From an uncultured Nitrosopumilales archaeon (GTDB lineage: Archaea; Thermoproteota; Nitrososphaeria; Nitrososphaerales; UBA57), in NCBI GenBank assembly GCA_964552125.1, contig CAZKFJ010000003.1, positions 1 through 62,482 of the forward strand: a DNA stretch of 62,482 nt. The letters run 5' to 3'. How positions within the stretch are numbered: the first letter of the stretch is position 1; the number at the start of each line of letters is the position of its first letter. Shown in pieces: positions 1-57,700 of this stretch. The translations under genes were made by a program, and so were the position numbers. Below the pieces are notes generated by a model. The model worked only from the letters and a program-made list of their open reading frames with translations. It was not told the DNA's origin and ran no database searches.

Positions 1-903
<903 letters not shown>

Positions 904-8098: not shown

Positions 8099-8860
8099 TC
8101 AAATAACCTCCAGAGCAGATTCTACAGAACTATTATCAAAAATAATGTTTGATATTGCTTTTGTAATATTCTCAGGATTAGAATGTTGGAAGATATTTCG
8201 ACCCATAGATACGCCTATTGCACCAGCGTCAATTGCGCCTTTTACCATCTCAAGTAATTCTTTATCATTATTAGCCTGTGGACCTCCTGCAATTACTATT
8301 GGAACAGGGCATCCTTCAACAACACTACGAAAACTCTCGGAATCACCTGTATAAACAGTTTTAACGACGTCAGCGCCCAATTCTGCTCCAATTCGTGCAA
8401 CATGCGAAACAATTTTTGGGTCAAAAGGATTGGATATATTTTCTCCGCGAGGATACATCATTGCAAGTAATGGAATATTTAATTCGGAGCATTCATCAGC
8501 CACCAAGCCAAGATCTTCTAACATGTTTCGGTCATGGCTAGAGCCGATATTTATGTGGATAGAAACAGCGTCTGCGGCATTTCCAAGAGCTAATTCAGGA
8601 CTTCCTACAATTACTTTATCGTCTGGAAAAACAGAAAGACTTGTGCTTGCAGAGAGATGAACAATTTTACCAATATCGATTTTTGTATCAAGTATTTTAA
8701 AAATTCCTTTATGTGCAACGACGGCGGATGCGCCTCCTTTTTGAACTAAATCTACAGTTTTATTAATATCAATCAATCCAGGAACTGGGCCAATGGTTAG
8801 ACCATGATCTAGGGTAACTGCAAGGATTCTTCCATTACGATTAATATTATTCATCATCAA
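8099..8860 (-). CDS. aroA': 2-amino-3,7-dideoxy-D-threo-hept-6-ulosonate (ADH) synthase, DhnA-type class I aldolase
   Basis: 253 aa DhnA/FbaB-like aldolase (LDHGLTIGP, VVKTVYTG). First gene of the aro operon. Confidence 0.8.
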   Translation of the reverse strand: MMMNNINRNGRILAVTLDHGLTIGPVPGLIDINKTVDLVQKGGASAVVAHKGIFKILDTKIDIGKIVHLSASTSLSVFPDDKVIVGSPELALGNAADAVSIHINIGSSHDRNMLEDLGLVADECSELNIPLLAMMYPRGENISNPFDPKIVSHVARIGAELGADVVKTVYTGDSESFRSVVEGCPVPIVIAGGPQANNDKELLEMVKGAIDAGAIGVSMGRNIFQHSNPENITKAISNIIFDNSSVESALEVI

Positions 8861-9010
8861 TTACACACCAAAAATAAACTAGTAAATTAGAGTGCTAACT
8901 AAGGATATGAAAAAGACCAGTAACTGTAACTTGGACGTTGTATCATGTTAGACTCTGAATATCATGAGAGCGGTTGATATATAAATATCACTTTTACAGA
9001 TACACAAATA

Positions 9011-10408
9011 ATGGGATTAACATTATTTAATTCATTAGGAAAGACAAAAGAGCCATTTATACCTAAGAATGAGGACGAGGTAACGGTATATTGCTGTGGT
9101 CCGACAGTATACGATTATGCCCACATAGGAAACCTAAGAACATTTTTGTTCGAGGACGTATTGATAAGGTTTTTAGAATTAAAAGGTTACAAAGTAAAAT
9201 TTGTAATGAACATAACGGATGTTGACGATAAAACAATTAAAGCGGCAAAAAATAACAACACCACGTTAAAAGAATATACAAGTAGATTTACAAGTGAGTT
9301 TTTTAAAGACTTACAAAGTTTGAATATTAAAGAGGCGACAGAATATCCAAGAGCGACAGACTATATTGACGACATAGAGAGGCATATAATGAAATTACAG
9401 AATGAAGATTACTGCTATGAAAGAGATGGTTCATACTATTATTCAATAAACAGATTTTCCAGATATGGAAGTCTATCAGGGTTAGAAATCAGTAATCAAA
9501 AAAACAGATCAAGATTGAATGAAGACGAGTATACAAAAGATAATGCACAAGATTTTGCGCTATGGAAGGCGTGGGACAAGGATGACGGAGACGTGTATTG
9601 GGAAGGAAAATTGGGGAAAGGAAGGCCGGGATGGCATATTGAATGTTCAGTAATGTCTACAAAAATACTAGGGGAAGAAATCGACATTCATGCAGGAGGA
9701 GTTGATTTAATATTCCCTCATCATGAAAATGAAATTGCGCAAACCGAAGCAGTTACAAACAAAAAATTTGTCAAATATTGGATTCATTCTGAACATCTCA
9801 TAGTGGAAGGAAAGAAAATGTCAAAATCAGAGGGTAATTTCTTTACACTTAGAGATTTGATAGAGAAGGGTTATGATGCAAAGAGTATCAGATTTCTATT
9901 AATCTCTTCGCATTATAGGTCACAATTGAATTTTACGTTTGATGGGATAAATCAAGCAAAAGAGAATATAAACAGGATGCAGGAAGTTTATTCAAAAATA
10001 ATCGAATGTAAGACAAGAACTGGAATAGATGCAAACATATCTAGTATTACTAAGGAATCTAAGAGGGCGTTTGAAGAAGCATTGGATGATGACTTGGATA
10101 TGCCAGTTGCATTGGCTTCAATCTTCAAATTTGTCAGAGATATTAACAGGTATTTAGAAAATAATCAAGTTTCAGAAACAAACAAATCAGAAATTATAGA
10201 TTACTTTGAAACGATAGACAGGGTATTAGGAATATTGTCAAATAAGACAATAGAAGTTGATGAGGATGTCAAGTCACTTATAGAACAGAGAGATGAGGCG
10301 AGAATAAAGAAGGACTGGAAGAAATCAGATGAGATTAGAGATGAATTATTAATGAAAGGGTTCATCGTAGAAGATACCAAAGAAGGAACTAGAATAAAGC
10401 GCAATTAA
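9011..10408 (+). CDS. cysS: Cysteine--tRNA ligase
   Basis: 465 aa with class I HIGN (YAHIGNLRT) and KMSKS motifs. A TATA-like TATATAAATA lies ~27 nt upstream, suggesting a leaderless mRNA. Confidence 0.95.
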   Translation: MGLTLFNSLGKTKEPFIPKNEDEVTVYCCGPTVYDYAHIGNLRTFLFEDVLIRFLELKGYKVKFVMNITDVDDKTIKAAKNNNTTLKEYTSRFTSEFFKDLQSLNIKEATEYPRATDYIDDIERHIMKLQNEDYCYERDGSYYYSINRFSRYGSLSGLEISNQKNRSRLNEDEYTKDNAQDFALWKAWDKDDGDVYWEGKLGKGRPGWHIECSVMSTKILGEEIDIHAGGVDLIFPHHENEIAQTEAVTNKKFVKYWIHSEHLIVEGKKMSKSEGNFFTLRDLIEKGYDAKSIRFLLISSHYRSQLNFTFDGINQAKENINRMQEVYSKIIECKTRTGIDANISSITKESKRAFEEALDDDLDMPVALASIFKFVRDINRYLENNQVSETNKSEIIDYFETIDRVLGILSNKTIEVDEDVKSLIEQRDEARIKKDWKKSDEIRDELLMKGFIVEDTKEGTRIKRN

Positions 10409-10409
10409 C

Positions 10410-10715
10410 CTACTTGTATGGTTTCGAAATTACGGATTTATCAGATTTCATTCCGGGTTTTGACAGTTTGTAAGTCCTATCGGAAGAAATTACATTGACA
10501 GACATAGAAGCTTGAACATTATAATGTTTGGAACCGTCAGAATTACGATAATTTGTTGCAACGCCAGCTCGATCTATATTCACTCGAATTTTAATAATGG
10601 ATCCATCTTCTAATTGGAAGGTTACTTCGTCAGAACCATCGGCATTAGCTTCAAGCATTTTAAATTCAATTTCATCGGGTACGTCGTTATTAGAATTTTT
10701 ACTCATAATTAACAA
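10410..10715 (-). CDS. Hypothetical small acidic/basic protein
   Basis: 101-aa ORF with no recognisable motif. Convergent with cysS across a 1-nt spacer. Confidence 0.5.
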   Translation of the reverse strand: MLIMSKNSNNDVPDEIEFKMLEANADGSDEVTFQLEDGSIIKIRVNIDRAGVATNYRNSDGSKHYNVQASMSVNVISSDRTYKLSKPGMKSDKSVISKPYK

Positions 10716-10832
10716 TCAAAAAGATAATAATTAAATTTTTAATGCTTGATTTCCGTTTTTTTATAAACTAATTCTTAAATGAGTACATAATTAAAAGTAG
10801 AAATAAGACACTAGTAGAGAGAAATTAAGAGA

Positions 10833-12395
10833 ATGTTTGAAATTAAATCGACTGAATTAGCGGCAAGAATCGGTAAATTATATACAAAAAACGGGAATAT
10901 GGAGACTCCTGCACTTTTACCGGTATTACATCCTGTAAATCAGTTAATCGATACCAGTGTCATAAAAAGAATGGGATTTGAAGCCATAATGACAAATTCA
11001 TACATCACATGGCAAAGATATGGCGATGAAGCTGTAGACAAAAATATTCATAAAATTGTTGATTTTGAAGGCCCCATTATGACTGATTCGGGAGGTTATC
11101 AAGTATTAGAATACGGGAAAGTAGATGTTGGTGAAATAGAAATAGCTAGGTTCCAAGAGAATATTGATTCAGATTTCTGCAACATATTAGACAAGCCCAC
11201 CAGTTTAGCAGATAATTGGGAAACAGCTAGAAATAGTGTAACACAAACATTAGAAGCATGTGAAATCACTCTCAAGGACATAGAACATAAATCAATTTGG
11301 ATGGCTCCAATTCAAGGGGGGAAATTCCTAGATTTGGTTGAGTTTTCGTCTAAACAATTATCAAAGATGAATTTTGACATGTTTGCTTTAGGAAGTCCCA
11401 CAGAAATTATGGAAAATTATGATTATACACTTTTGGCAAAGATGATAATAACTGCAAAGAAAAACATACCTTCTGAGAAAGCTCTTCACCTGTTTGGACT
11501 AGGTCACCCTCTTCCATTGTCAATGGCAGTTGCTCTTGGTTGTGATACATTTGATTCTGCGTCCTACATACTTTATGCAAAACATGGTCGGTATTTTACT
11601 GAAAATGGAACACGAAACATAGATGAATTAGAATATCTTCCGTGCATTTGTGAAACATGTAATAAATATTCGGTAAGAGAGATGAGAAAGTTAGAACACA
11701 AGGAGAGAATCAGTGCCATTGGAACTCATAACTTGTGGCTATTATGGAAGGAAATAGTTTCGACCAGGCAAGCAATAAGAGAGGGAAGGTTATGGGAATA
11801 TGTAGGAATTCGTGCCAGATCTCATCCGAAAATGTGGGATGCATTTGTATATATTTCGAATAATATGGATGAGATATCAGAATTTCAAAAGAGGTTTAAA
11901 TCAAAAGGCATGTTTCTTGCATCTTTTCCCGATAATAGAAGGCCGGAATTAAGAAATTATCAAAAGAAGTTAGCAGATGTTTTTAGGAGATTTGAGAACC
12001 GCAAAATAATAATTATTCCAGTAACAAAAAACAAACCACTGCTTTATAATAATAAATTAAAAAATATAATAGAAAACAGTAAAAGCGATTATATAATTGG
12101 ATATATAATTCCGCCAATTGGATTTGTACCTTATCAAATAACAGATATTTATCCAATTTCCCACATGGAAAGTTCGTATGAAATAAAGAAAGACAAGATA
12201 GTGATTGATGAATTGATTACGACACTAGAAGAACAGTTTAGTATATTGAATCCAAAAGAAGTCATATACATGAAAGACAACAAACTCAATCAAAGAGTTG
12301 TAGATTTTATTGTAAGAGAAGTGAAGCCTAAAAGAATCATAGAGGGCGAATTAGATTTCATATATACAGAATTGGAAGAGATATTAAACAACTAA
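10833..12395 (+). CDS. tgtA: Archaeosine tRNA-guanine transglycosylase (ArcTGT)
   Basis: 520 aa. The TGT N-terminus (ARIGKLYTKNGNMETPALLPV, TDSGGYQ) and the zinc site CICETCNKY...H are present. Confidence 0.88.
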   Translation: MFEIKSTELAARIGKLYTKNGNMETPALLPVLHPVNQLIDTSVIKRMGFEAIMTNSYITWQRYGDEAVDKNIHKIVDFEGPIMTDSGGYQVLEYGKVDVGEIEIARFQENIDSDFCNILDKPTSLADNWETARNSVTQTLEACEITLKDIEHKSIWMAPIQGGKFLDLVEFSSKQLSKMNFDMFALGSPTEIMENYDYTLLAKMIITAKKNIPSEKALHLFGLGHPLPLSMAVALGCDTFDSASYILYAKHGRYFTENGTRNIDELEYLPCICETCNKYSVREMRKLEHKERISAIGTHNLWLLWKEIVSTRQAIREGRLWEYVGIRARSHPKMWDAFVYISNNMDEISEFQKRFKSKGMFLASFPDNRRPELRNYQKKLADVFRRFENRKIIIIPVTKNKPLLYNNKLKNIIENSKSDYIIGYIIPPIGFVPYQITDIYPISHMESSYEIKKDKIVIDELITTLEEQFSILNPKEVIYMKDNKLNQRVVDFIVREVKPKRIIEGELDFIYTELEEILNN

Positions 12396-48182: not shown

Positions 48183-48270
48183 GCCGTCGTAGCTCAGCGT
48201 GGTAGAGCAGTTGACTGTTAATCAACTGGTCGCAGGTTCAAGATTATATATGAAAATCCTGTCGACGGCG
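48183..48270 (+). tRNA. tRNA-Asn (anticodon GTT) with a 14-nt intron in the T-loop
   Basis: Acceptor GCCGTCG/CGACGGC, D-arm GCTC-AGCGTGGTA-GAGC, anticodon arm GTTGA-CTGTTAA-TCAAC. The T-stem GCAGG/CCTGT closes a 7-nt TTCAAAT loop only if ~48242-48255 (GATTATATATGAAA) is removed. Confidence 0.85.
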
Positions 48271-49621: not shown

Positions 49622-49740
49622 TGGTGCCGGGGGTGGGATTTGAACCCACGAACACCTAAGTGACGGGATGTCATATACTTGGCTCTCGAAAGAGAGCGAT
49701 CTTAAGTCCAGCGCCTTTGACCTGGCTCGGCAACCCCGGC
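49622..49740 (-). tRNA. tRNA-Leu (anticodon TAA) with a ~31-nt intron and genomically encoded CCA
   Basis: Reverse-complement fold: acceptor GCCGGGG/CCCCGGC, class II D-arm, anticodon loop CTTAAGA, long variable arm TCACTTAGGTGTTC, T-arm GTGGG-TTCAAAT-CCCAC, then A-CCA. The intron (~49670-49700) contains a perfect 6-bp hairpin GCTCTC-TTTC-GAGAGC. Its boundary is ambiguous within an ATC repeat. Confidence 0.8.
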
Positions 49741-49823: not shown

Positions 49824-51242
49824 ATGATGGTATCAAGAAAGATATTGTTGTTATTGATATTGCCCGTTATTTTGGGGCTTATAGTAGGAAGTCAGATAAC
49901 AAACGATGTAGATAATGAACAAGGAGAGTTAATTCAAGATAGTTGTAATCTTAGAACTGAAAATAACAACAAGTATATCAAAGAATACGTTATTCCAACT
50001 AGATGTTCCGCTCCGGTAGCAATAACAATTGATAATGAAGGTTTAGTGTGGTTTATTGAGAACAACCATAGTAAATTAGTCTCTTTTAATCCAAATCAAG
50101 AGTCATTTATTGAATATCAGATTTCAGATATTTATTTAGACGTACAATCTTGGAGCATGGTTGCAGTAGATAACGAAATATGGTTTACAGATCATCGAAA
50201 CAATTTAATATGGAAATATATGAAGTCGGAAAATAGATTTGAATATTATAGATTATTAACAGAAAATTCATATCCTGTTCAGATATTAAATAATAAAAAT
50301 CAAATGATTGTATCAGAAATATTTGGGAAGAAAATCGCAATACTAGAAATTGATAAATTAAGAACAAATACAACGAAGGGGGTAAACGAAATTTCTCCTG
50401 AGATTGATCTAGACGTATTAGGAGGAATTGCGATAGATGACGAAGGTAGAATATGGTATACTATGCTTACATGGCCGATTGAGGGGCATTTGGGAAATTA
50501 TAAAGATGGAGAATTTATTTCGTATAAATTACCGAAAGAAATATCATCTCCAGTTGGAATTTCAATTAAAGAGAATCAAATATGGATAAATGATCATGGT
50601 TCCAGTCAATTTGTCTTATTTAATCTTGAAAATAATACTTTTACAAACTATGTAACATCTTCAAGTAAATCAGACTTTACAACAACATTACCATATTGGA
50701 ATAAGTTTGACAATGATGGAAATATCTGGATGAATATTCACCAATCGAACACTATAGCAAAAATTGATGTGGAAAAAAAGATATTGATTGAATATGAAAT
50801 ACCAACAAGAAATTTTGATTGGGGAGGAATATCCAACCCGCTTCAATTCGATATAGATAATCAAGGAAATATCTGGTTTACAGAATGGACGGAAAACAAG
50901 ATTGCAATGCTGGATACTAGAAAACCATTGGAATTCAGTATTGAATCGTCGACTAGAGAGATAGTAATTGACAATAATAAAGTGGGAGAAATGATACTAA
51001 TGATAGAACCCAAGAAACAATTAGATGTAGAAATAAAAATTACCGGGACATTTAGCAAGAATGGTTCGATAAAAAATGTTTCAATAACATTCGAACAGAT
51101 AGAAAATGAGTTCGATGTGAAAAAAGAAATTCCAATCTTGATAAAATCAGAGAATTTAGACAAGGGAACGTATACAATAATGGTAAGTGTTGAGAGCGAG
51201 GAGATTACTCAATCAATTCCAATAAAATTAGTTATGAAATAA
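49824..51242 (+). CDS. Secreted/anchored beta-propeller protein (streptogramin-lyase/Vgb-like repeats) with C-terminal Ig-like region
   Basis: 472 aa with an N-terminal TM/signal segment and about 6 repeats ending in (E/D)G.(I/V)W(F/Y/I/M)(T/I/N)(E/D/M): GLVWFIE, NEIWFTD, GRIWYTM, NQIWIND, GNIWMNI, GNIWFTE. Confidence 0.7.
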   Translation: MMVSRKILLLLILPVILGLIVGSQITNDVDNEQGELIQDSCNLRTENNNKYIKEYVIPTRCSAPVAITIDNEGLVWFIENNHSKLVSFNPNQESFIEYQISDIYLDVQSWSMVAVDNEIWFTDHRNNLIWKYMKSENRFEYYRLLTENSYPVQILNNKNQMIVSEIFGKKIAILEIDKLRTNTTKGVNEISPEIDLDVLGGIAIDDEGRIWYTMLTWPIEGHLGNYKDGEFISYKLPKEISSPVGISIKENQIWINDHGSSQFVLFNLENNTFTNYVTSSSKSDFTTTLPYWNKFDNDGNIWMNIHQSNTIAKIDVEKKILIEYEIPTRNFDWGGISNPLQFDIDNQGNIWFTEWTENKIAMLDTRKPLEFSIESSTREIVIDNNKVGEMILMIEPKKQLDVEIKITGTFSKNGSIKNVSITFEQIENEFDVKKEIPILIKSENLDKGTYTIMVSVESEEITQSIPIKLVMK

Positions 51243-51247
51243 TTGTA

Positions 51248-51323
51248 TGGGGCGAGGGAGATTTGAACTCCCGATCACTTGCTCCCAAAGCAAACATCTT
51301 AGACCAGACTAGACAACCGCCCC
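51248..51323 (-). tRNA. tRNA-Pro (anticodon TGG), intron-less
   Basis: Reverse-complement fold: acceptor GGGGCGG/TCGCCCC, D-stem GTCT/AGAT, anticodon arm TTTGC-TTTGGGA-GCAAG, T-arm GGGAG-TTCAAAT-CTCCC. 76 nt. Confidence 0.9.
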
Positions 51324-51425
51324 AATAACGTATAATTATCAATGTAGAAAAGTATATCGAGATTTGGTAGAATTAGGTCAAAATATGTTAAGCTTTAAAT
51401 GTATATTTTATTTATATAGTATATC

Positions 51426-53498
51426 TTGTCAACAATGCCTTACAAAACATCAAAGAGAGTAAGGACAATTTATTCAGTTATTGCATCGTCAAATCGTCTA
51501 GATATTTTAAGAATATTGAATTCCAAGGGGCCTTTAAGTTATTCAGAATTAAAAACATTGGCAGGGTTCAAATCGAAAAAAGAATCTGGAAAATTCGCAT
51601 ATCATTTAAGAAAATTAGTTAAACAAATGCTAGTTACATTAAACAGATCAGAAAGGAGGTACAATGTAACAAACCTAGGAAGACTAATTCTAAATTTAAC
51701 AAGGCAAATAGAAGAACAAAGTGTAATAGAGAGTGGAAAGATCTACGTTAGAACATCGAAAGAAATGATGGAGGAGTTCAAGCCAGACAAAATTTTACAA
51801 GCATTGGTTAAAGAGGCAGGAATGCCGGTGGATTTAGCGCAAAAGATGACGAGTGAAGCTGAGGCCAGATTATATAAATTTCAAACAAGCTACCTCACGG
51901 CTCCACTAATAAGAGAAATAGTTAATGCATTATTAATTGAACACGGATATGAAGAGTATAGGCACAAATTAACAAGAATAGGCCTTCCAATTCATGATGT
52001 TACTCAGATGTTAAAACAAAGTACAAGAAGTGATAATGGAGTATCGTCATTAGTTACACAAACATCTAAAGAAGTATTTTCGGAATATCTGTTACTAAAT
52101 CAATTATCAAGAGATGTAACTGATGCGCATCTATCAGGAGATATACATATTTCTAATTTAGGAGTATGGGGTCTAAAACCAGATACAGTTTTTGTGAATC
52201 TAAGTTCATTGCCGAGTCAAGGAATAAAGGTAAAAGGAAAATTACTTAGTTCTGTAAAGATCAACAAAGCAGAGAGTTTTTCAGATAGTATTTCGAATAT
52301 GGTGTTACTTACAACAGAATTGAGTAAAGAAATAAACACAGAGATAGCATACAATAATTTTATAGATTACATAACTGGTTTTGTAGACAATAAGACTTCT
52401 AGCTCAAAAAACAGTTTAGTACAAATGTTCAAAATGATTTCTCAAGTAGTATCAGATGATACTAGTCCATTTGTATCAATGAATCTAAATGTTCAAAAGA
52501 ATTCTAAAATTGACGATAAACAACTGACAAAACTACATAAATTGATTCTAGAAAGTTATGAAGAATATATACAATCAATAGCCATCCCAAAGATAACATT
52601 AATATTACCATTAACTAATTCACAAAATACAGAAATAAGTAAAAAGGTATTTACAATCATAAAGAAAGGCGGTTACATTGCAATAAATGCCGATACAAAG
52701 AATAATTTCTCCTATACAGGAATTAATAAATCAATGGTTAAGAATTCTGCAGGGGGAAATATTATTCTTCATGCAGTTTCAATTAATCTTCCTAGATTGG
52801 CATATGAATCAAATAAAGACGATACATATTTTAGAGCAAAAGTGAATTTGATTTTAAAGACTGCGATATCGGCATTGTCCACCAGGAGAGAGATAATCGA
52901 TGACATGACAGGTAAAGGGCTATTGCCATTGCTGAATATAAATACTGGAATAATTTCTAGTCAAAAGATTCCACTTATAATTAATTTTACAGGATTAGAT
53001 GAAGCAATAGACGGTCTTTTAGGCACGAAATCAACCTCAAAAGAAAGGGGAAAGTTAGCGGGAAAGATCATAGATACAGCTATGGAAGAGATTACAAATT
53101 CAGGTAAGAGATTAAGCGAGGAATTTGGACTATCGTCGATTGTAGATGACTCTGCAGAGAGGTTTACAAATATCGATATAGAGAAATTTGGAAAGGCCAG
53201 AGTAATCAAGGAATATCAACAATCTAGAATACTGGATCTAGATGAGCAAGAGAAGATTGATGAGATGAATAGCTATATTAGTAAATTCAAAGGGGGTTAT
53301 TCATTATACATAGATACATCGAATTCGACAATTAAGAATTTTCAAGAAATGACTAATAAAATATCAAAAAAAGTTGGCTTTTTCAAATATCATTGTAAGT
53401 TAAGAGTTTGTATTTCTTGCGCGTATAAAAACGTCTACAATACAGAAAAATGTAGTAATTGCAATTCAACGTCATTACAAGAATATCCGGTAAATTAA
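51426..53498 (+). CDS. wHTH + ATP-cone + class III RNR (NrdD)-like protein lacking a glycyl-radical C-terminus
   Basis: 690 aa (TTG at 51426; ATG at 51435 sits ~22 nt after a TTTATATA box and may be the leaderless start). ArsR-like wHTH, ATP-cone-like segment, NrdD-like AHLSGDIHISNLG and SINLPRLAYES, and a C-terminal CxxC-x10-CxxC followed by 11 Gly-free residues and the stop. Confidence 0.7.
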   Translation: MSTMPYKTSKRVRTIYSVIASSNRLDILRILNSKGPLSYSELKTLAGFKSKKESGKFAYHLRKLVKQMLVTLNRSERRYNVTNLGRLILNLTRQIEEQSVIESGKIYVRTSKEMMEEFKPDKILQALVKEAGMPVDLAQKMTSEAEARLYKFQTSYLTAPLIREIVNALLIEHGYEEYRHKLTRIGLPIHDVTQMLKQSTRSDNGVSSLVTQTSKEVFSEYLLLNQLSRDVTDAHLSGDIHISNLGVWGLKPDTVFVNLSSLPSQGIKVKGKLLSSVKINKAESFSDSISNMVLLTTELSKEINTEIAYNNFIDYITGFVDNKTSSSKNSLVQMFKMISQVVSDDTSPFVSMNLNVQKNSKIDDKQLTKLHKLILESYEEYIQSIAIPKITLILPLTNSQNTEISKKVFTIIKKGGYIAINADTKNNFSYTGINKSMVKNSAGGNIILHAVSINLPRLAYESNKDDTYFRAKVNLILKTAISALSTRREIIDDMTGKGLLPLLNINTGIISSQKIPLIINFTGLDEAIDGLLGTKSTSKERGKLAGKIIDTAMEEITNSGKRLSEEFGLSSIVDDSAERFTNIDIEKFGKARVIKEYQQSRILDLDEQEKIDEMNSYISKFKGGYSLYIDTSNSTIKNFQEMTNKISKKVGFFKYHCKLRVCISCAYKNVYNTEKCSNCNSTSLQEYPVN

Positions 53499-53637
53499 AT
53501 TATTTTTATAATCAACAAGTCATAAACAATTGACAGGGTTATTCTATATTAACAAAAAACAAAGCCCAGAATAAACAGATTGAATCGATTAACAGGTATT
53601 TTCATGTATAAACCAATTATGTTTTTTTGCAAGAGTG

Positions 53638-53658
53638 AAATCTTTTGTCAAAAGATTT
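53638..53658. promoter_or_regulatory. Perfect 10+10 bp inverted repeat AAATCTTTTG-T-CAAAAGATTT
   Basis: Read directly from the sequence; every position 53638-53647 pairs with 53658-53649. Followed by a T-rich tract. It could be an operator or a hairpin terminator for the upstream gene. Confidence 0.5.
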
Positions 53659-53812
53659 TATTATGTTATGTCTTATACAAATTTGTCTATAGAGTGATGT
53701 GAATAGAACTGTTTTTAATTGTAGTAAAAAAGATATACAAAATGTTAATTTAATCGGCAATCACTCAACATATGTGGATTTGCCGGTTAATGCGATAAAC
53801 GCTCATATACTG

Positions 53813-53826
53813 GTTCTACATAGAAC
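53813..53826. promoter_or_regulatory. Palindrome GTTCTA-CA-TAGAAC 26-39 nt upstream of the nrdJ ATG
   Basis: Read directly from the sequence. The half-site ATAGAAC recurs at 53703-53709. A GAGGT Shine-Dalgarno-like element follows at ~53837-53841. Confidence 0.4.
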
Positions 53827-53851
53827 AGTGTCCTAGTGAGGTTTTGAGTTT

Positions 53852-56254
53852 ATGGAAATTAATAATGTTTTATCCGAAAATGTAATGAAGGTATTAAAAG
53901 CAAGATACCTGTTAAAATTCGAAGATGGAAGGCAAGAAAAACCAGATGAATTATTTTTAAGAGTTGCCGGAGCAATAGCGAGCGCAGATGAAGAATACCA
54001 GGATTTTAACAGCAAAGAATCAAAAGAAATATTTTATAAAATGATGAAAAACTTCGAATTTTTGCCTAATTCTCCCACTTTGATGAATGCAGGAGCCCCA
54101 TTAGGTCAATTATCAGCCTGTTTTGTATTACCTATTGAAGATGAAACAAGCTCAATAATGGATGCGGTAAAGACTCAAGCAATAGTCCAAAAAACAGGAG
54201 GAGGAACAGGTTTTTCATTCTCAAAATTAAGGCCAGAAGGGGATCAAGTAGGATCAACTGGATCTGTAGCGTCAGGACCTGTATCATTTATGCAATTATT
54301 TGACAAATGCACGCAAGTAATTAAGCAGGGAGGAAAAAGACGAGGAGCAAACATGGGAATAGTGAATATCGAACATCCTGATGTTGTAGAATTTATTGAA
54401 ATGAAAAGGAACAACATGAAATTAGCAGAAGAAGCAAAGATTATGAAAGAATTCAATGTATCAGTAGCAATCACTGATGACTTTATGAGTAGATTAGAAA
54501 AAGAAGACTATCATAAATTTATTAATCCAAGAACTGGAGAAGAAGTTTTAAAATGTAATAAATGTAGGAAAAATGTTTTCCCTGGACAAAATGAATCTAG
54601 GTGTAATTTATGTGGAGGAGAAGGCGAAAGAATAAGAGCTAGAGAATTATGGGAAAAAATTATCGATTGTGCATGGGAGTGTGCAGATCCGGGATTAATT
54701 TTCATAGATAAAATAAATAATAGTAATTCAAACCCTGTAAGAGAACATTTCAAAATTGAATCAACAAATCCGTGTGGGGAAGTGCCATTACTGCCAAATG
54801 AAAGTTGTAACTTAGGTTCCATAAATGTAGCGAAATTTACAAATAATGAGAATAACGACATGGATTGGGACAGACTTAGAGAATGTACAAGAAATGCAAT
54901 ACATTTTCTTGACAACGTAGTTACAAAGAATCAATATCCAACAAAAGAAATTGAAGAATTATCGCGTAATATGAGAAGATTAGGACTAGGTGTTATGGGA
55001 TTAGCAGACTTGTTAAGTAAATTAAAAATTAAATACGGGTCGGATGAATCATTCAGGTTTTCAAGAAAATTAATGAAGTTTATTTCAGATGTTGCTTGGA
55101 AGATGTCTGAAGAATTAGCAGAGAATAGAGGTACATTTCCTTATTGGGATAAAAGTGATTTCGCGAAGATTGGAAGAAAGGTCAGGAATGTAAATTGTAC
55201 AATAATTGCCCCTACAGGTTCAATTGGAACGATAGCAAATTGTTCTCCAGGAATAGAACCTCATTTTGCTTTAGTTTTTGTAAGGCACTCGAGAATCAAA
55301 GAAAGAAGTGAAGAATTTGAGGAACTTCATTATTTGAATGAATCATTTGCAATAGCACTAGAGGATCATAACATCAATCTGGATAAAGAAAAAATAAATG
55401 AAATTTCTGCAAACGGAGGAAGTATTCAAGACATATCCTGGATTCCAAGCGAGGTAAAGGAGATGTTTCCAATTGCCGCAGATTTATCTGGAGATCAACA
55501 TGTGCGCATGCAATCTGCTTTTCAAGAATTCGTTGATGATGGAGTAAGTAAAACAATTAACCTTGCAAACGAAGCTACTAAAGAAGATGTAAATAATTCT
55601 TATAGATTAGCATACAACACACATTGTAAAGGAATAACAGTATATCGCGATGGTTGTCTAGATGTTCAAGTATTAGAAACAGACAAGACGAAGAATTTAC
55701 GAGGAGATAATAAAAACAAAGAATCAGCACATGTTTTACCAGGAGGGTATAAACGTCCTGAGTATTTAGTAGGTAGAACGTATAGATTTACGTACACAAA
55801 CAGCGGATTATTTATTACAATAAATAGAGATCAAGAAGGAAGACCAAGAGAGGTATTCATTGAAAGGGGTAAATCAGGTGATGAAGAGAAAGCAGCATAT
55901 GAAGGAATGGGAAGATTAATCTCAATAGCGTTGCAATCCGATGTCGATGTGAAGTCAATAATTAAGACAATGCGAGGAATACAAACAAAGAATGTATCAT
56001 GGCATCAAACAAAAGGCAACAGTATACCAATTAGGTCAGTTCCAGATGCAGTTGCTCATGCATTAGCTGATTCCATGCACACAGAACCAGAAGCAATAAT
56101 CCCAGAAACAGAAGAAATAAAGAACGAAGTATTAGAAATAACAGGATCTAGTTCAAATAACAAGAGTAAATGTACTGCATGTGGAGAAATGAGTTTGATT
56201 TACGCAGAAGGTTGTAGTAAATGTTTGTCTTGTTCCTATTCCAGTTGCGGTTAG
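53852..56254 (+). CDS. nrdJ: Adenosylcobalamin-dependent (class II) ribonucleotide reductase
   Basis: 800 aa with the catalytic finger-loop STNPCGEVPL..ESCNLGS and a C-terminal Cys-rich zinc finger (CTACGE...CSKCLSC). Has an additional internal CxxC-x12-CxxC (54554-54613). No intein-sized insertion. Confidence 0.92.
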   Translation: MEINNVLSENVMKVLKARYLLKFEDGRQEKPDELFLRVAGAIASADEEYQDFNSKESKEIFYKMMKNFEFLPNSPTLMNAGAPLGQLSACFVLPIEDETSSIMDAVKTQAIVQKTGGGTGFSFSKLRPEGDQVGSTGSVASGPVSFMQLFDKCTQVIKQGGKRRGANMGIVNIEHPDVVEFIEMKRNNMKLAEEAKIMKEFNVSVAITDDFMSRLEKEDYHKFINPRTGEEVLKCNKCRKNVFPGQNESRCNLCGGEGERIRARELWEKIIDCAWECADPGLIFIDKINNSNSNPVREHFKIESTNPCGEVPLLPNESCNLGSINVAKFTNNENNDMDWDRLRECTRNAIHFLDNVVTKNQYPTKEIEELSRNMRRLGLGVMGLADLLSKLKIKYGSDESFRFSRKLMKFISDVAWKMSEELAENRGTFPYWDKSDFAKIGRKVRNVNCTIIAPTGSIGTIANCSPGIEPHFALVFVRHSRIKERSEEFEELHYLNESFAIALEDHNINLDKEKINEISANGGSIQDISWIPSEVKEMFPIAADLSGDQHVRMQSAFQEFVDDGVSKTINLANEATKEDVNNSYRLAYNTHCKGITVYRDGCLDVQVLETDKTKNLRGDNKNKESAHVLPGGYKRPEYLVGRTYRFTYTNSGLFITINRDQEGRPREVFIERGKSGDEEKAAYEGMGRLISIALQSDVDVKSIIKTMRGIQTKNVSWHQTKGNSIPIRSVPDAVAHALADSMHTEPEAIIPETEEIKNEVLEITGSSSNNKSKCTACGEMSLIYAEGCSKCLSCSYSSCG

Positions 56255-57186
56255 AAAGACGAATTTTCTGTGAAAATAAGGTGTAACAAAGTTGAACGAA
56301 TTAATTTTCCAGAGCTTACTTGATTAAAGTATTTTGCATAAACAGTATTATCAATTTCACTAGGAATTTCGTCAGATCTAGGCATAGGATGAAGTAAAAT
56401 AAGGTTTTCTTTCGCTTTGGCAAGTAAATTGTTATCAATTTTATAAGATCCCTTTACTCTTTCATACTCTTGTAAATCAGGAAAACGTTCTTTTTGAATT
56501 CTAGTGGTATAAATCACATCCAAATCAGAAATAATGTCTTGAAGGTTTTCATGAACAGAAATATTTAGTTTACTTTTAAGTTCAATTAATGGATCAGGTC
56601 GAAGTTGAAGAGGTTTAGGGGATACAAGATGAATATTAGGTTTATAATTAGACAGAGCGTATAAAAGAGAATAAACTGTTCTGCCGTATTTTAAATCTCC
56701 GAAAATTGCAATATTTAAGTTGTCGACTTTACCGCATTCGTTTAAAATGGTATAAACATCCAACATAGCTTGGGTAGGATGTTCTTCGCTACCACTACCG
56801 GCATTGATAATTGGATTGGTGCATATTTCTGAAGCATATCTAGAAACTCCTTCGCTAGCATGTCTTAGAATTATAGCGTCAACGTATTGGTCCATTGTAA
56901 GTAAACTGTCACTAAGATTTTCGCCTTTCTGAGTAGATGAGTCGGAAGGATTACCAAAACTAATTGACTTTCCGCCCAAAGAATTCATTGCAGATTCAAA
57001 ACTTAAACGAGTACGAGTACTTGGTTCAAAAAACATAAGTCCAATCGACTTAGTACTCAGAGAGTCGTTAGGAAGAGATGTTTTAATTTTATCAGCGACT
57101 TGAAATAAATAGTCTAAGTCAGGACGTTGAAAATCCTTGATCGAAACAATATCACGGTTATAAAATGGATTTTTCAATCTTTTCAT
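56251..57186 (-). CDS. pyrB: Aspartate carbamoyltransferase catalytic subunit
   Basis: Motifs FFEPSTRTR, EHPTQ and LHPMPR. The sensible start MKRLKNPFYNRDIVSIKDF is at ATG 57186 (the tracked start is 57225). Confidence 0.92.
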   Translation of the reverse strand: MKRLKNPFYNRDIVSIKDFQRPDLDYLFQVADKIKTSLPNDSLSTKSIGLMFFEPSTRTRLSFESAMNSLGGKSISFGNPSDSSTQKGENLSDSLLTMDQYVDAIILRHASEGVSRYASEICTNPIINAGSGSEEHPTQAMLDVYTILNECGKVDNLNIAIFGDLKYGRTVYSLLYALSNYKPNIHLVSPKPLQLRPDPLIELKSKLNISVHENLQDIISDLDVIYTTRIQKERFPDLQEYERVKGSYKIDNNLLAKAKENLILLHPMPRSDEIPSEIDNTVYAKYFNQVSSGKLIRSTLLHLIFTENSSF

Positions 57187-57238
57187 TAGTTTATACACAC
57201 ATAAATATAAACGTTGCAAAAACAAGAATTAATAGAAA
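57187..57238. promoter_or_regulatory. 52-nt divergent pyrB/pyrI promoter region
   Basis: A single central A/T-rich element (ATAAATATAAA, ~57210-57220) lies ~20-30 nt from both ATGs. This is consistent with two back-to-back leaderless promoters. Confidence 0.4.
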
Positions 57239-57700
57239 ATGTCAGAAACGCACGATCTTAGAATAAATAGGATAAAACACGGAACGGTCTTAGATCATAT
57301 TGTGGCTGGAAGAGCATTCAATGTGTTATCTGCATTGGACATTAATGGGACGGACGGGAATCAAGTTTCTGTTGCAATGAATGTTTCCAGTAAACAGTAT
57401 AAGAAGAAAGATATAATTAAAATTGAAAACAGGATATTGGCAGTAGAAGAGACGAATCGTTTAGCATTAATTACACCGCATTCTACAATCAACATAATTG
57501 AAAATTACGAAATAAGAGAAAAAAGAAATGTAGAACTACCCGAAAAGTTCACAGGAGTGTTCAAATGTACAAATCCGACATGTATTTCAAATTCAGATGA
57601 GCCGATTGTTTCAGAATTAGTGGTCAATAGTCAAGATCCTCCAAGTTTAAAATGTAAATACTGTACAAGAATCTCATTAACAGAAGAAATACTGAAATAA
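57239..57700 (+). CDS. pyrI: Aspartate carbamoyltransferase regulatory subunit
   Basis: 153 aa. N-terminus RINRIKHGTVLDHI and a C-terminal zinc domain CTNPTCIS...CKYC. Confidence 0.92.
   Translation: MSETHDLRINRIKHGTVLDHIVAGRAFNVLSALDINGTDGNQVSVAMNVSSKQYKKKDIIKIENRILAVEETNRLALITPHSTINIIENYEIREKRNVELPEKFTGVFKCTNPTCISNSDEPIVSELVVNSQDPPSLKCKYCTRISLTEEILK

Follow-up and report, generated by a model that had tools for sequence, protein, structure and literature searches.

A winged-helix-bearing, catalytically dead homologue of anaerobic ribonucleotide reductase encoded beside nrdJ in archaea: a candidate regulator of deoxyribonucleotide synthesis

The 62,482-nucleotide stretch analysed here (positions 1 to 62,482 of contig CAZKFJ010000003.1, from an uncultured Nitrosopumilales archaeon; hereafter the window) carries, directly upstream of its gene for a B12-dependent class II ribonucleotide reductase (RNR), nrdJ, a gene at 51426-53498 whose product resembles NrdD, the class III RNR of anaerobic metabolism, over most of its length. 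The question raised by this locus is what such a protein does next to another RNR. Control of RNR expression is well understood in eukaryotes and in bacteria, where NrdR, an RNR-specific repressor of about 150 amino acids, combines a zinc ribbon with an ATP-cone; to our knowledge, no general RNR regulator is known in archaea. The initial annotation of this DNA proposed that the protein is an inactive NrdD relative with a DNA-binding head and serves as an archaeal analogue of NrdR. The analysis described below indicates that the protein is almost certainly a non-catalytic NrdD paralogue with a DNA-binding-type head. It also suggests, with appreciably less certainty, that this paralogue responds to adenine nucleotides and acts as a transcription factor on genes of RNR and nucleotide metabolism. 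All computational checks capable of overturning the initial interpretation favoured it. The gene and its parts are as follows.

51426-53498, plus strand: gene for the winged-helix / ATP-cone / dead-NrdD / zinc-ribbon protein, 690 amino acids (open reading frame listing, Pfam)
51468-51725, plus strand: ArsR/SmtB-like winged helix, residues ~15-100 (Pfam, AlphaFold2, Foldseek)
51585-51626, plus strand: predicted recognition helix, SGKFAYHLRKLVKQ
51741-51995, plus strand: ATP-cone and linker, residues ~106-190 (Pfam, alignment, Foldseek)
52035-53390, plus strand: dead class III RNR (NrdD) alpha/beta barrel, residues ~204-655 (Pfam, AlphaFold2, Foldseek)
52173-52199, plus strand: former beta-A strand site, LKPDTVFVN (alignments with seven genuine NrdDs)
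52704-52733, plus strand: former finger (Cys-radical) loop, NFSYTGINKS (alignments with genuine NrdDs)
52779-52811, plus strand: retained core motif, SINLPRLAYES (alignments)
53400-53474, plus strand: Cys4 zinc ribbon, a remnant of the NrdD glycyl-radical domain (C662, C665, C676, C679)

A Pfam search bore out the four-part architecture of the initial annotation (winged helix, ATP-cone, NrdD body and ribbon), and the motifs quoted there were all found at the positions given for them. Residues 15-89 match DUF7347 (42 bits; cut-off 27.6), residues 20-71 match HTH_20 (28.7 bits; cut-off 27), residues 106-178 match the ATP-cone model PF03477 (33.9 bits; cut-off 25.8) and residues 204-683 match NRDD (E = 1e-40). 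The NCBIfam equivalog model for NrdD, TIGR02487, gives only 107 bits, far under its cut-off of 326. The ribbon cysteines are spaced C662-x2-C665-x10-C676-x2-C679. The open reading frame starts with TTG, and an in-frame ATG follows three codons on, at 51435. A database entry 100% identical to the window protein (P0001, 687 amino acids) begins at this ATG, and an orthologue of 68% identity (L007) has ATG where the window gene has TTG. The closest relative of the gene, at 96% identity, comes from a Nitrososphaerales metagenome-assembled genome from Station ALOHA.

The residues on which class III chemistry depends are gone. The protein was aligned by MAFFT with seven genuine NrdDs, among them those of E. 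coli, a T4-like phage, Felixounavirus and an archaeon (locus L090; 485 bits on TIGR02487, with the motifs RPFCQ, QCCR and SRITGYY). The active-site Cys of strand beta-A (C175 in E. coli, C79 in T4) is Thr in the window protein, and in all of the ~100 aligned representatives of its family this position is occupied by T, E, D, N, V or A. The finger-loop Cys that carries the thiyl radical is defined by the motif MGCR or MCCR (PMC9669993). At this position (C384 in E. coli), where 7/7 genuine NrdDs have Cys, the window protein has Ile (SYTG-I-NK), and the Cys is lost in essentially all of the same representatives, with P0165 and P0171 as exceptions. The whole window protein contains five Cys, all within residues 657-679 and none in residues 1-656, so the earlier observation that no Cys precedes the NLPR motif holds in the strongest sense. 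The chain ends 11 residues past the last ribbon Cys (NSTSLQEYPVN, then the stop codon); as the initial annotation had pointed out, this tail has no Gly, and the RxxGY motif is missing. A frameshift hiding a glycyl-radical tail was considered and rejected: beyond the stop codon, further stops close each of the three frames, so a frameshift cannot restore the tail, and neither an intact thiyl Cys nor a glycyl-radical motif reachable in this way was found.

The search for the activating enzyme gave a matching result. In the 62-kb window, tblastn with E. coli and T4-like NrdG gave a best E of 0.7 and no open frame of at least 80 amino acids contains a CxxxCxxC motif, in line with the earlier statement that the window encodes no radical-SAM activase; within 6 kb of the gene, no NrdG was found in 80 related loci. 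What has been retained is structural: the Asn-Leu-Pro-Arg core, in which neither the family nor genuine NrdDs vary at N454, P456 or R457, and the ribbon residues C662, C665, C676 and C679, which fall on the ribbon Cys positions of genuine NrdDs and do not vary in the family alignment. Judged from its sequence, the window protein cannot be a ribonucleotide reductase.

These features are shared by a large archaeal family. A word-indexed search returned thousands of relatives; among the 120 relatives listed, nearly all have 687-703 amino acids with the same domains, and the few shorter entries are mostly on short contigs. An exhaustive search over 50%-identity representatives gave 186 at E <= 1e-30. 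At least 597 species-representative genomes carry a relative, the best 80 being all Nitrososphaeria, and the family spans Thaumarchaeota, Aigarchaeota, Bathyarchaeota and Asgard archaea, with one member found in Promethearchaeota. Short forms, to which the Thaumarchaeota proteins including the window protein belong, stop just past the ribbon, and the aligned full-length representatives all end within ~15 residues of it. Long forms of ~740-780 amino acids, found in Bathyarchaeota and Thorarchaeota, continue into a tail homologous to the glycyl-radical domain, usually without the Gly; a few of them (P0211, P0175, P0170) keep Gly at the radical position. Aigarchaeota forms of ~565-585 amino acids have lost the zinc ribbon. 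A 653-amino-acid member without the ribbon also occurs in a GC-rich Nitrososphaera-like lineage (L095, 5001-6962 of a 2.7-Mb contig); no nrdJ adjoins it, and the upstream thiolase and oligonucleotide/oligosaccharide-binding-fold genes are the same as in Nitrosopumilus.

Database names for the family are inconsistent. Some members are called 'helix-turn-helix domain-containing protein', 'ArsR family transcriptional regulator' or 'DUF7347 domain-containing protein', and many are called 'anaerobic ribonucleoside-triphosphate reductase'. The long-form paralogue of L090 (6001-8301), which is 31% identical over 721 amino acids to the genuine NrdD adjoining it, even passes the NCBIfam NrdD cut-off (341 against 326 bits), though it is without the catalytic residues. 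The reductase label is a systematic annotation error, and metabolic reconstructions that rely on it or on the NrdD model can wrongly infer anaerobic synthesis of deoxyribonucleoside triphosphates (dNTPs) in aerobic archaea.

Structure prediction, which the initial annotation had proposed as a check, gave an intact NrdD fold from which the catalytic Cys and Gly are missing. The AlphaFold2 model of the window protein (35-sequence alignment) has a mean predicted local distance difference test score (pLDDT) of 86 and a predicted template-modelling score of 0.75. The top 36 Foldseek matches of the full model in the Protein Data Bank are all NrdDs, from T. maritima, S. thermophilus, P. copri and T4, with template-modelling (TM) scores up to 0.69. 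The 10-stranded alpha/beta barrel of the RNR and glycyl-radical-enzyme type is thus present by Pfam, AlphaFold2 and Foldseek. The winged-helix region is modelled with pLDDT 87-97. A separate model of residues 1-202 (pLDDT 83) matches SmtB, CzrA, ArsR, NolR, CadC and HlyU with TM scores of 0.65-0.75 and root-mean-square deviations of 2-3 Å. Its further matches are ATP-cones, those of NrdR and P. aeruginosa NrdA.

Far from being a decaying relic, the gene evolves under strong purifying selection. When it is compared with the 96%-identical orthologue in L004 (dS 0.33), the ratio of nonsynonymous to synonymous substitution rates (dN/dS) comes to ~0.05 for the whole gene and 0.075 for the barrel, while dN is 0 for the winged helix and likewise for the cone. 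Over longer distances, conservation in the family is highest in the N-terminal ~190 residues, which are kept from Thaumarchaeota to Asgard archaea, with the recognition-helix residues G55, F57, Y59 and H60 invariant. Identity to the window protein in the cone is 61% for short forms and 53% for long forms; the barrel, at 30% and 21%, is the least conserved part. An attempt to place the NrdD specificity site and loop 2 on family sequences residue by residue, using a profile alignment, was rejected: this stretch and the finger loop fall in unconserved, low-confidence columns, and for this reason effector binding is not assigned to the barrel. Genuine NrdD barrels form an alpha2 dimer. This, together with the unconserved specificity-site and loop-2 region, suggests that the barrel has been kept probably as a dimerisation scaffold.

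The genes around the family point to its target. In the window, the gene is followed by these.

53852-56254, plus strand: nrdJ, class II adenosylcobalamin RNR, 800 amino acids, without an ATP-cone (TIGR02504, 696 bits)
56251-57225, minus strand: pyrB, aspartate carbamoyltransferase (open reading frame listing)
57239-57700, plus strand: pyrI, aspartate carbamoyltransferase (open reading frame listing)

The match to TIGR02504 supports the original assignment of the downstream neighbour as a class II, B12-dependent RNR. Window NrdJ also contains an internal CxxC...CxxC insert (CNKCRK...CNLCGG), a TSCPD domain and a Cys-rich C-terminal tail. The order is not a peculiarity of this contig. Synteny was sampled in the best 80 of the at least 597 genomes, in six of which the contig ends too early for the order to be judged; nrdJ lies directly downstream on the same strand in 74/74 informative thaumarchaeal loci, which answers the question of synteny raised with the initial annotation. 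Gaps before nrdJ appear larger in Nitrosopumilus because NrdJ there carries its own cone; this cone (in L079 NrdJ, 8247-10895) is canonical, IRKRNGSVVAFNKDKI. nrdJ also directly follows a Bathyarchaeota long form, and in L090, which represents an anaerobic lineage, the long form is followed by the genuine nrdD, a thioredoxin-like gene, pyrB and pyrI, so that the family adjoins two classes of RNR.

pyrB is the second recurrent neighbour. It stands beside family members in L084, L090, L093, L094 and L096, even without an adjacent RNR gene in some lineages: in L084 the family gene lies between purL/F/E/M and pyrB/pyrI, in 2/3 Aigarchaeota-type loci the family gene and pyrB are divergent (73 nt apart in L096), and in the Promethearchaeota locus it abuts pyrB. 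In the window itself, nrdJ and pyrB converge with a 4-nt overlap, and pyrB and pyrI are divergent. This recurrence implies that the regulon may be nucleotide metabolism more broadly. While nrdJ is the presumed target, pyrB and pyrI possibly belong to the regulon as well. That the family follows the RNR class of its host and the pyrimidine genes argues for a regulatory role at the level of the pathway over a specific protein partner.

If the protein regulates nrdJ and itself, a common DNA element would be expected at both promoters. The candidate elements of the window are the following.

51376-51437, plus strand: own promoter region of the regulator gene (alignment with L004-L007; proposed function)
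51376-51384: conserved block GGTCAAAAT in the own promoter (same alignment)
51393-51401: TATA-like CTTTAAATG in the own promoter (same alignment)
51425-51437: cTTGTCAAcaATG, overlapping the start codon and including cTTGTCAA (same alignment)
53499-53851, plus strand: 353-nt intergenic region upstream of nrdJ with candidate operators
53519-53534: dyad GTCAt-N6-TTGAC, candidate operator
53638-53658: 21-nt palindrome AAATCTTTTGTCAAAAGATTT, candidate operator
53802-53813 and 53826-53836: conserved blocks near the nrdJ start, CTCATATACTGG and CAGTGTCCTAG

Two islands of the nrdJ upstream region survive to 68% protein identity among four orthologous loci: AAGTCA[T/G]AAA[C/T]AATTGAC (53517-53535) and TCTTGTCAA, which lies inside the palindrome at 53638-53658. 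The two blocks near the nrdJ start are conserved as far. Across species, TTGTCAA/TTGACAA is the top 7-mer, occurring in 29/74 nrdJ upstream regions where 3.3 are expected from shuffles. Perfect GTCAA/TTGAC dyads with spacers of 4-8 nt have a density of 0.73 per kb upstream of nrdJ, 0.042 in the remaining non-coding DNA of these loci and 0.009 in coding sequence, and are therefore ~17 times denser upstream of nrdJ than in other non-coding DNA. In the 46 loci outside Nitrosopumilaceae, single GTCAA/TTGAC elements are enriched at both places (5.4 per kb upstream of the regulator gene and 9.3 upstream of nrdJ, against 2.2 in other non-coding DNA), and 39/46 of these loci have one upstream of the regulator gene. 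In the 35 Nitrosopumilaceae-type loci, TGATC/GATCA shows the same pattern (13.8 and 9.1 per kb, against 3.6). An element common to both promoters that changes at both together between clades is what is expected of an autoregulated factor.

Details of the Nitrosopumilaceae loci (L047-L083) may be added. Upstream of the regulator gene they have tandem aaaa(c)TGATC repeats (for example, L079 5740-5900), and upstream of nrdJ they have GATCA-N13-15-TGATC palindromes (for example, L079 8041-8246). These elements stand in place of the GTCAA/TTGAC of other clades, and the predicted recognition helix is almost unchanged. Several other features were looked for in the same DNA. An RNA element such as a riboswitch upstream of nrdJ was rejected, since Rfam, at the gathering threshold and at E <= 1, found nothing over 51150-53950 except tRNA; the nrdJ upstream intergenic region has no terminator-like hairpin. 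A 33-codon open reading frame (53604-53705, plus strand; MYKPIMFFCKSEIFCQKILLCYVLYKFVYRVM, then stop) spans the palindrome but is probably not a gene, its counterpart in L005 containing a stop codon. A scan for sigma-70 promoters was set aside as irrelevant for an archaeon.

The cone is the candidate sensor. In P. copri NrdD, Lys7 and Arg8 of the cone contact the phosphates of the nucleotide (PMC11226230). The canonical hairpin V-x-K-R-D/N-G is present in E. coli NrdD and in Nitrosopumilus NrdJ; the archaeal NrdD of L090 has V-R-K-S-K-G, and the family has V-R-T-S-K/R-x, the hairpin of the window protein reading VRTSKEMMEEF with T-S for K-R. The cone shares its subtype with that of the L090 NrdD, at 41% identity. 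The C-terminal helix of the window cone is YEEYRHKLTRIG, and in it the counterparts of Tyr83, Arg87 and Arg91 are kept as the invariant Y178, R179 and R184. From Thaumarchaeota to Asgard archaea, the invariant cone residues are V108, R109, E116, F118, I123, E130, R163, E164, E176, R179 and R184, eight of which are charged. With the hairpin pair lost but the C-helix residues kept, nucleotide binding by the family cone is plausible from its sequence, though this does not allow it to be asserted, and the cone is likely to be the nucleotide sensor. The earlier description of a DNA-binding domain joined to a (d)ATP sensor therefore stands as far as folds are concerned (an ArsR/SmtB-type winged helix and an NrdR-like cone), but not with respect to the canonical Lys-Arg pair.

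Taken together, these observations suggest the following scheme, in which we infer that the family protein binds DNA, as well as its ligand, whether it activates or represses, and how far its regulon reaches. An archaeal NrdD that already bore an N-terminal ATP-cone would have been duplicated, and one copy would have gained an ArsR/SmtB-type winged helix at its N-terminus. This copy would then have lost the two active-site Cys and, in Thaumarchaeota, also the whole glycyl-radical tail, leaving barrel, zinc ribbon and ATP-cone of the former enzyme. The dimeric barrel may hold two winged helices, which would bind GTCAA/TTGAC-type dyads upstream of nrdJ and at the own promoter. Exchange of ATP for dATP on the cone may alter how the protein oligomerises or how its DNA-binding heads are arranged, so that transcription of the RNR gene, and perhaps of pyrBI, would be tuned to the dNTP supply. 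An extension of this scheme can be put forward tentatively, and we consider it slightly more apt to fail than to hold: the winged-helix-fused dead RNR would act as master regulator of transcription for the synthesis of dNTPs, and perhaps of pyrimidines, across TACK (Thaumarchaeota, Aigarchaeota, Crenarchaeota and Korarchaeota) and Asgard archaea, an independently invented counterpart of NrdR in which the cone reads dATP/ATP and the barrel sets the operator geometry.

Several observations weigh against this scheme. Besides the replacement of the phosphate-contacting Lys-Arg pair by T-S, the dyad of the window has one mismatch and occurs at chance level (2 matches where 2.39 are expected), the AT-rich window contains TTGTCAA 27 times, and the dyad is ~320 nt from the nrdJ start, which is far for an archaeal repressor unless the leader is long. 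The dyad of the window taken by itself is not significant, so the proposal of operators draws on conservation and on enrichment across species. The loci that served to define the motif are also those in which it was counted, and they are phylogenetically related. The independent long-form loci give weak support, with single half-sites only; one, in L087, lies right before a TATA box (TTTTTTGTCAAAAAAtttaaata). The recognition helix is nearly identical in clades with different enriched elements. As for gene context, 4/11 contexts sampled beyond the 80-locus scan (L084-L097) have no nucleotide-metabolism neighbour, and the Nitrososphaera-like lineage described above has the family gene without nrdJ adjoining.

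Other explanations of the family have to be set against this evidence, and two of them can be dismissed. A working class III RNR with an unusual radical site, or with a C-terminus hidden by a frameshift, might be suggested by the reductase names in databases, the score of the L090 long form above the NrdD cut-off and the Gly kept in a few long forms. The replaced beta-A and finger-loop Cys, the absence of any Cys from residues 1-656, the short chain end with its closed downstream frames, the lack of an NrdG within 6 kb in 80 loci, the 107 bits of the window protein and the coexistence of the L090 member with a genuine NrdD next door refute it at the level of sequence, and its probability is negligible. 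Equally negligible is an inert relic, that is, a decaying nrdD pseudogene fused by chance to a helix-turn-helix gene: no catalytic residue is left and some lineages have dropped the C-terminal domains too, yet dN/dS is low even in the barrel, hundreds of species have an intact open reading frame of uniform length, the AlphaFold2 model is confident and the gene order is kept over deep divergence. Selection and conservation thus refute this explanation.

More deserving of attention is a partnership at the protein level, in which the family member would be, for example, an ATP-cone supplied in trans to a cone-less NrdJ, or an assembly or chaperone subunit of the working RNR, with the winged helix used for protein contacts. 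ATP-cones can act from a different subunit, as in NrdB (PMC5794259), and the strict pairing with nrdJ, the lack of a cone in window NrdJ and the purifying selection on the barrel would all fit. The family is unchanged, however, where NrdJ has its own canonical cone, as in Nitrosopumilus; it pairs with two structurally different RNR classes, and also stands beside pyrB alone or without a nearby RNR. Its most conserved part is an ArsR/SmtB-type recognition helix and wing, and a short DNA element is enriched at both promoters, which makes such a partnership improbable. A somewhat stronger, though still unlikely, explanation is a transcription factor with another signal or regulon: a general regulator of pyrimidine, purine or dNTP metabolism or of replication, with the effector (a ribo- or deoxyribonucleoside triphosphate) at the former active or specificity site of the barrel, or redox state or metal at the Cys4 ribbon, and the cone as a linker. 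The recurrence of pyrB and pyrI, including the divergent regulator-target layouts in Aigarchaeota, the loss of the cone Lys-Arg pair, the invariant Asn-Leu-Pro-Arg motif of the barrel and the fact that ArsR/SmtB relatives are typically metal or redox sensors would agree with it. Against an effector in the barrel stand the unconserved loop-2/specificity-site stretch and finger loop and an identity of 21-30% where the cone has 53-61%; against the ribbon stands its absence from Aigarchaeota forms; and eight charged cone residues invariant across phyla do not suggest a mere linker. As to the regulon, no candidate element was seen at the pyrB/pyrI promoter of the window or at the divergent pyrB-regulator promoter of Aigarchaeota.

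The preferred reading, a nucleotide-responsive transcription factor built on NrdD, invites comparison with known regulators. Like NrdR, the family has an ATP-cone (that of the window model matches the NrdR cones 7p37, 9fvr and 9fxk by Foldseek), is encoded beside the RNR genes on which it presumably acts, and has candidate palindromic sites upstream of both the RNR gene and itself. In contrast to NrdR, DNA binding would use an N-terminal ArsR-like winged helix and not the zinc ribbon, which here lies at the C-terminus and is the homologue of the NrdD ribbon; with its whole dead RNR barrel the protein is four times larger, and its cone lacks the canonical K-R pair. No NrdR model is among the NCBIfam matches of the window protein at E <= 1. 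The resemblance is convergent, and homology is limited to the cone. The term 'archaeal NrdR analogue' used in the initial annotation is thus apt as an account of the probable working of the protein and inapt if taken as membership of the NrdR family; the accompanying remark that archaea generally lack NrdR agrees with its reported rarity there (PMC9110341).

With NrdD, and especially with archaeal ATP-cone forms that have a double-Cys finger loop, the family shares the fold, the order ATP-cone, barrel and zinc ribbon, and the core motifs aHLsGdIhi, iNLPRlAyes and GLLP; it differs in lacking the beta-A Cys, the finger-loop Cys, the glycyl-radical motif (in the window protein) and a nearby NrdG, in its extra N-terminal winged helix and in the unconserved loop-2/specificity-site region. 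ArsR/SmtB proteins bind dyad operators as dimers. The N-terminal domain of the window protein has the same fold and a recognition-helix signature ..S/G-x-F-x-Y-H-L-R-x-L.., but no ArsR-type metal sites were identified in it, it contains no Cys, and the metalloregulator model NF033788 gives 22 bits against a cut-off of 55. Dimerisation presumably occurs via the NrdD barrel, not via the alpha1 and alpha5 helices as in ArsR, and the winged helix is fused to about 590 further residues. PyrR, BirA, PutA and NadR are enzyme-derived regulators or pseudo-enzyme sensors in which, as proposed here, an enzyme scaffold of the regulated pathway is re-used as a sensing or oligomerisation module; unlike the present family, they are mostly still active enzymes or derive from other folds. 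In the literature searched, no case was found of an RNR or glycyl-radical barrel re-used as a regulator.

The architecture was likewise not found described in the searchable literature on RNRdb, RNR phylogeny, ATP-cones and NrdR, in which subscription journals are thinly covered, so that an earlier mention is possible. The family probably represents the archaeal control of the supply of DNA precursors and offers a concrete, testable candidate RNR regulator with defined target DNA. Its carriers among the at least 597 species genomes include the globally abundant ammonia-oxidising Thaumarchaeota. The apparent recycling of the catalytic subunit of a radical enzyme, together with its allosteric cone, into a regulator of its own pathway bears on pseudo-enzymes and on the evolution of allostery. 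If the extended scheme is correct, this would be the first transcription factor known on an RNR or glycyl-radical-enzyme scaffold, and it would explain how the single B12-dependent RNR of aerobic ammonia-oxidising archaea is controlled. The interest will be mainly for specialists in RNR and in archaeal regulation, for whom a question becomes directly testable.

Some further features of the window were noted. A tRNA-Pro gene (anticodon TGG; 51247-51324, minus strand) lies directly upstream of the regulator gene; its placement is the same in the 85-96% identical loci L004-L006, though not in the corresponding stretch of L007. A 116-nt Rfam tRNA match at 49625-49740 (minus strand; 39.5 bits), unreported by ARAGORN, is probably an intron-containing archaeal tRNA, and a tRNA-like match at 48183-48238 (plus strand) is borderline (29.5 bits; cut-off 29). 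The G+C content of the window is ~33%, and its first 903 nucleotides (1-903, minus strand) hold the 5' part of an archaeal 16S rRNA gene, cut by the window start.

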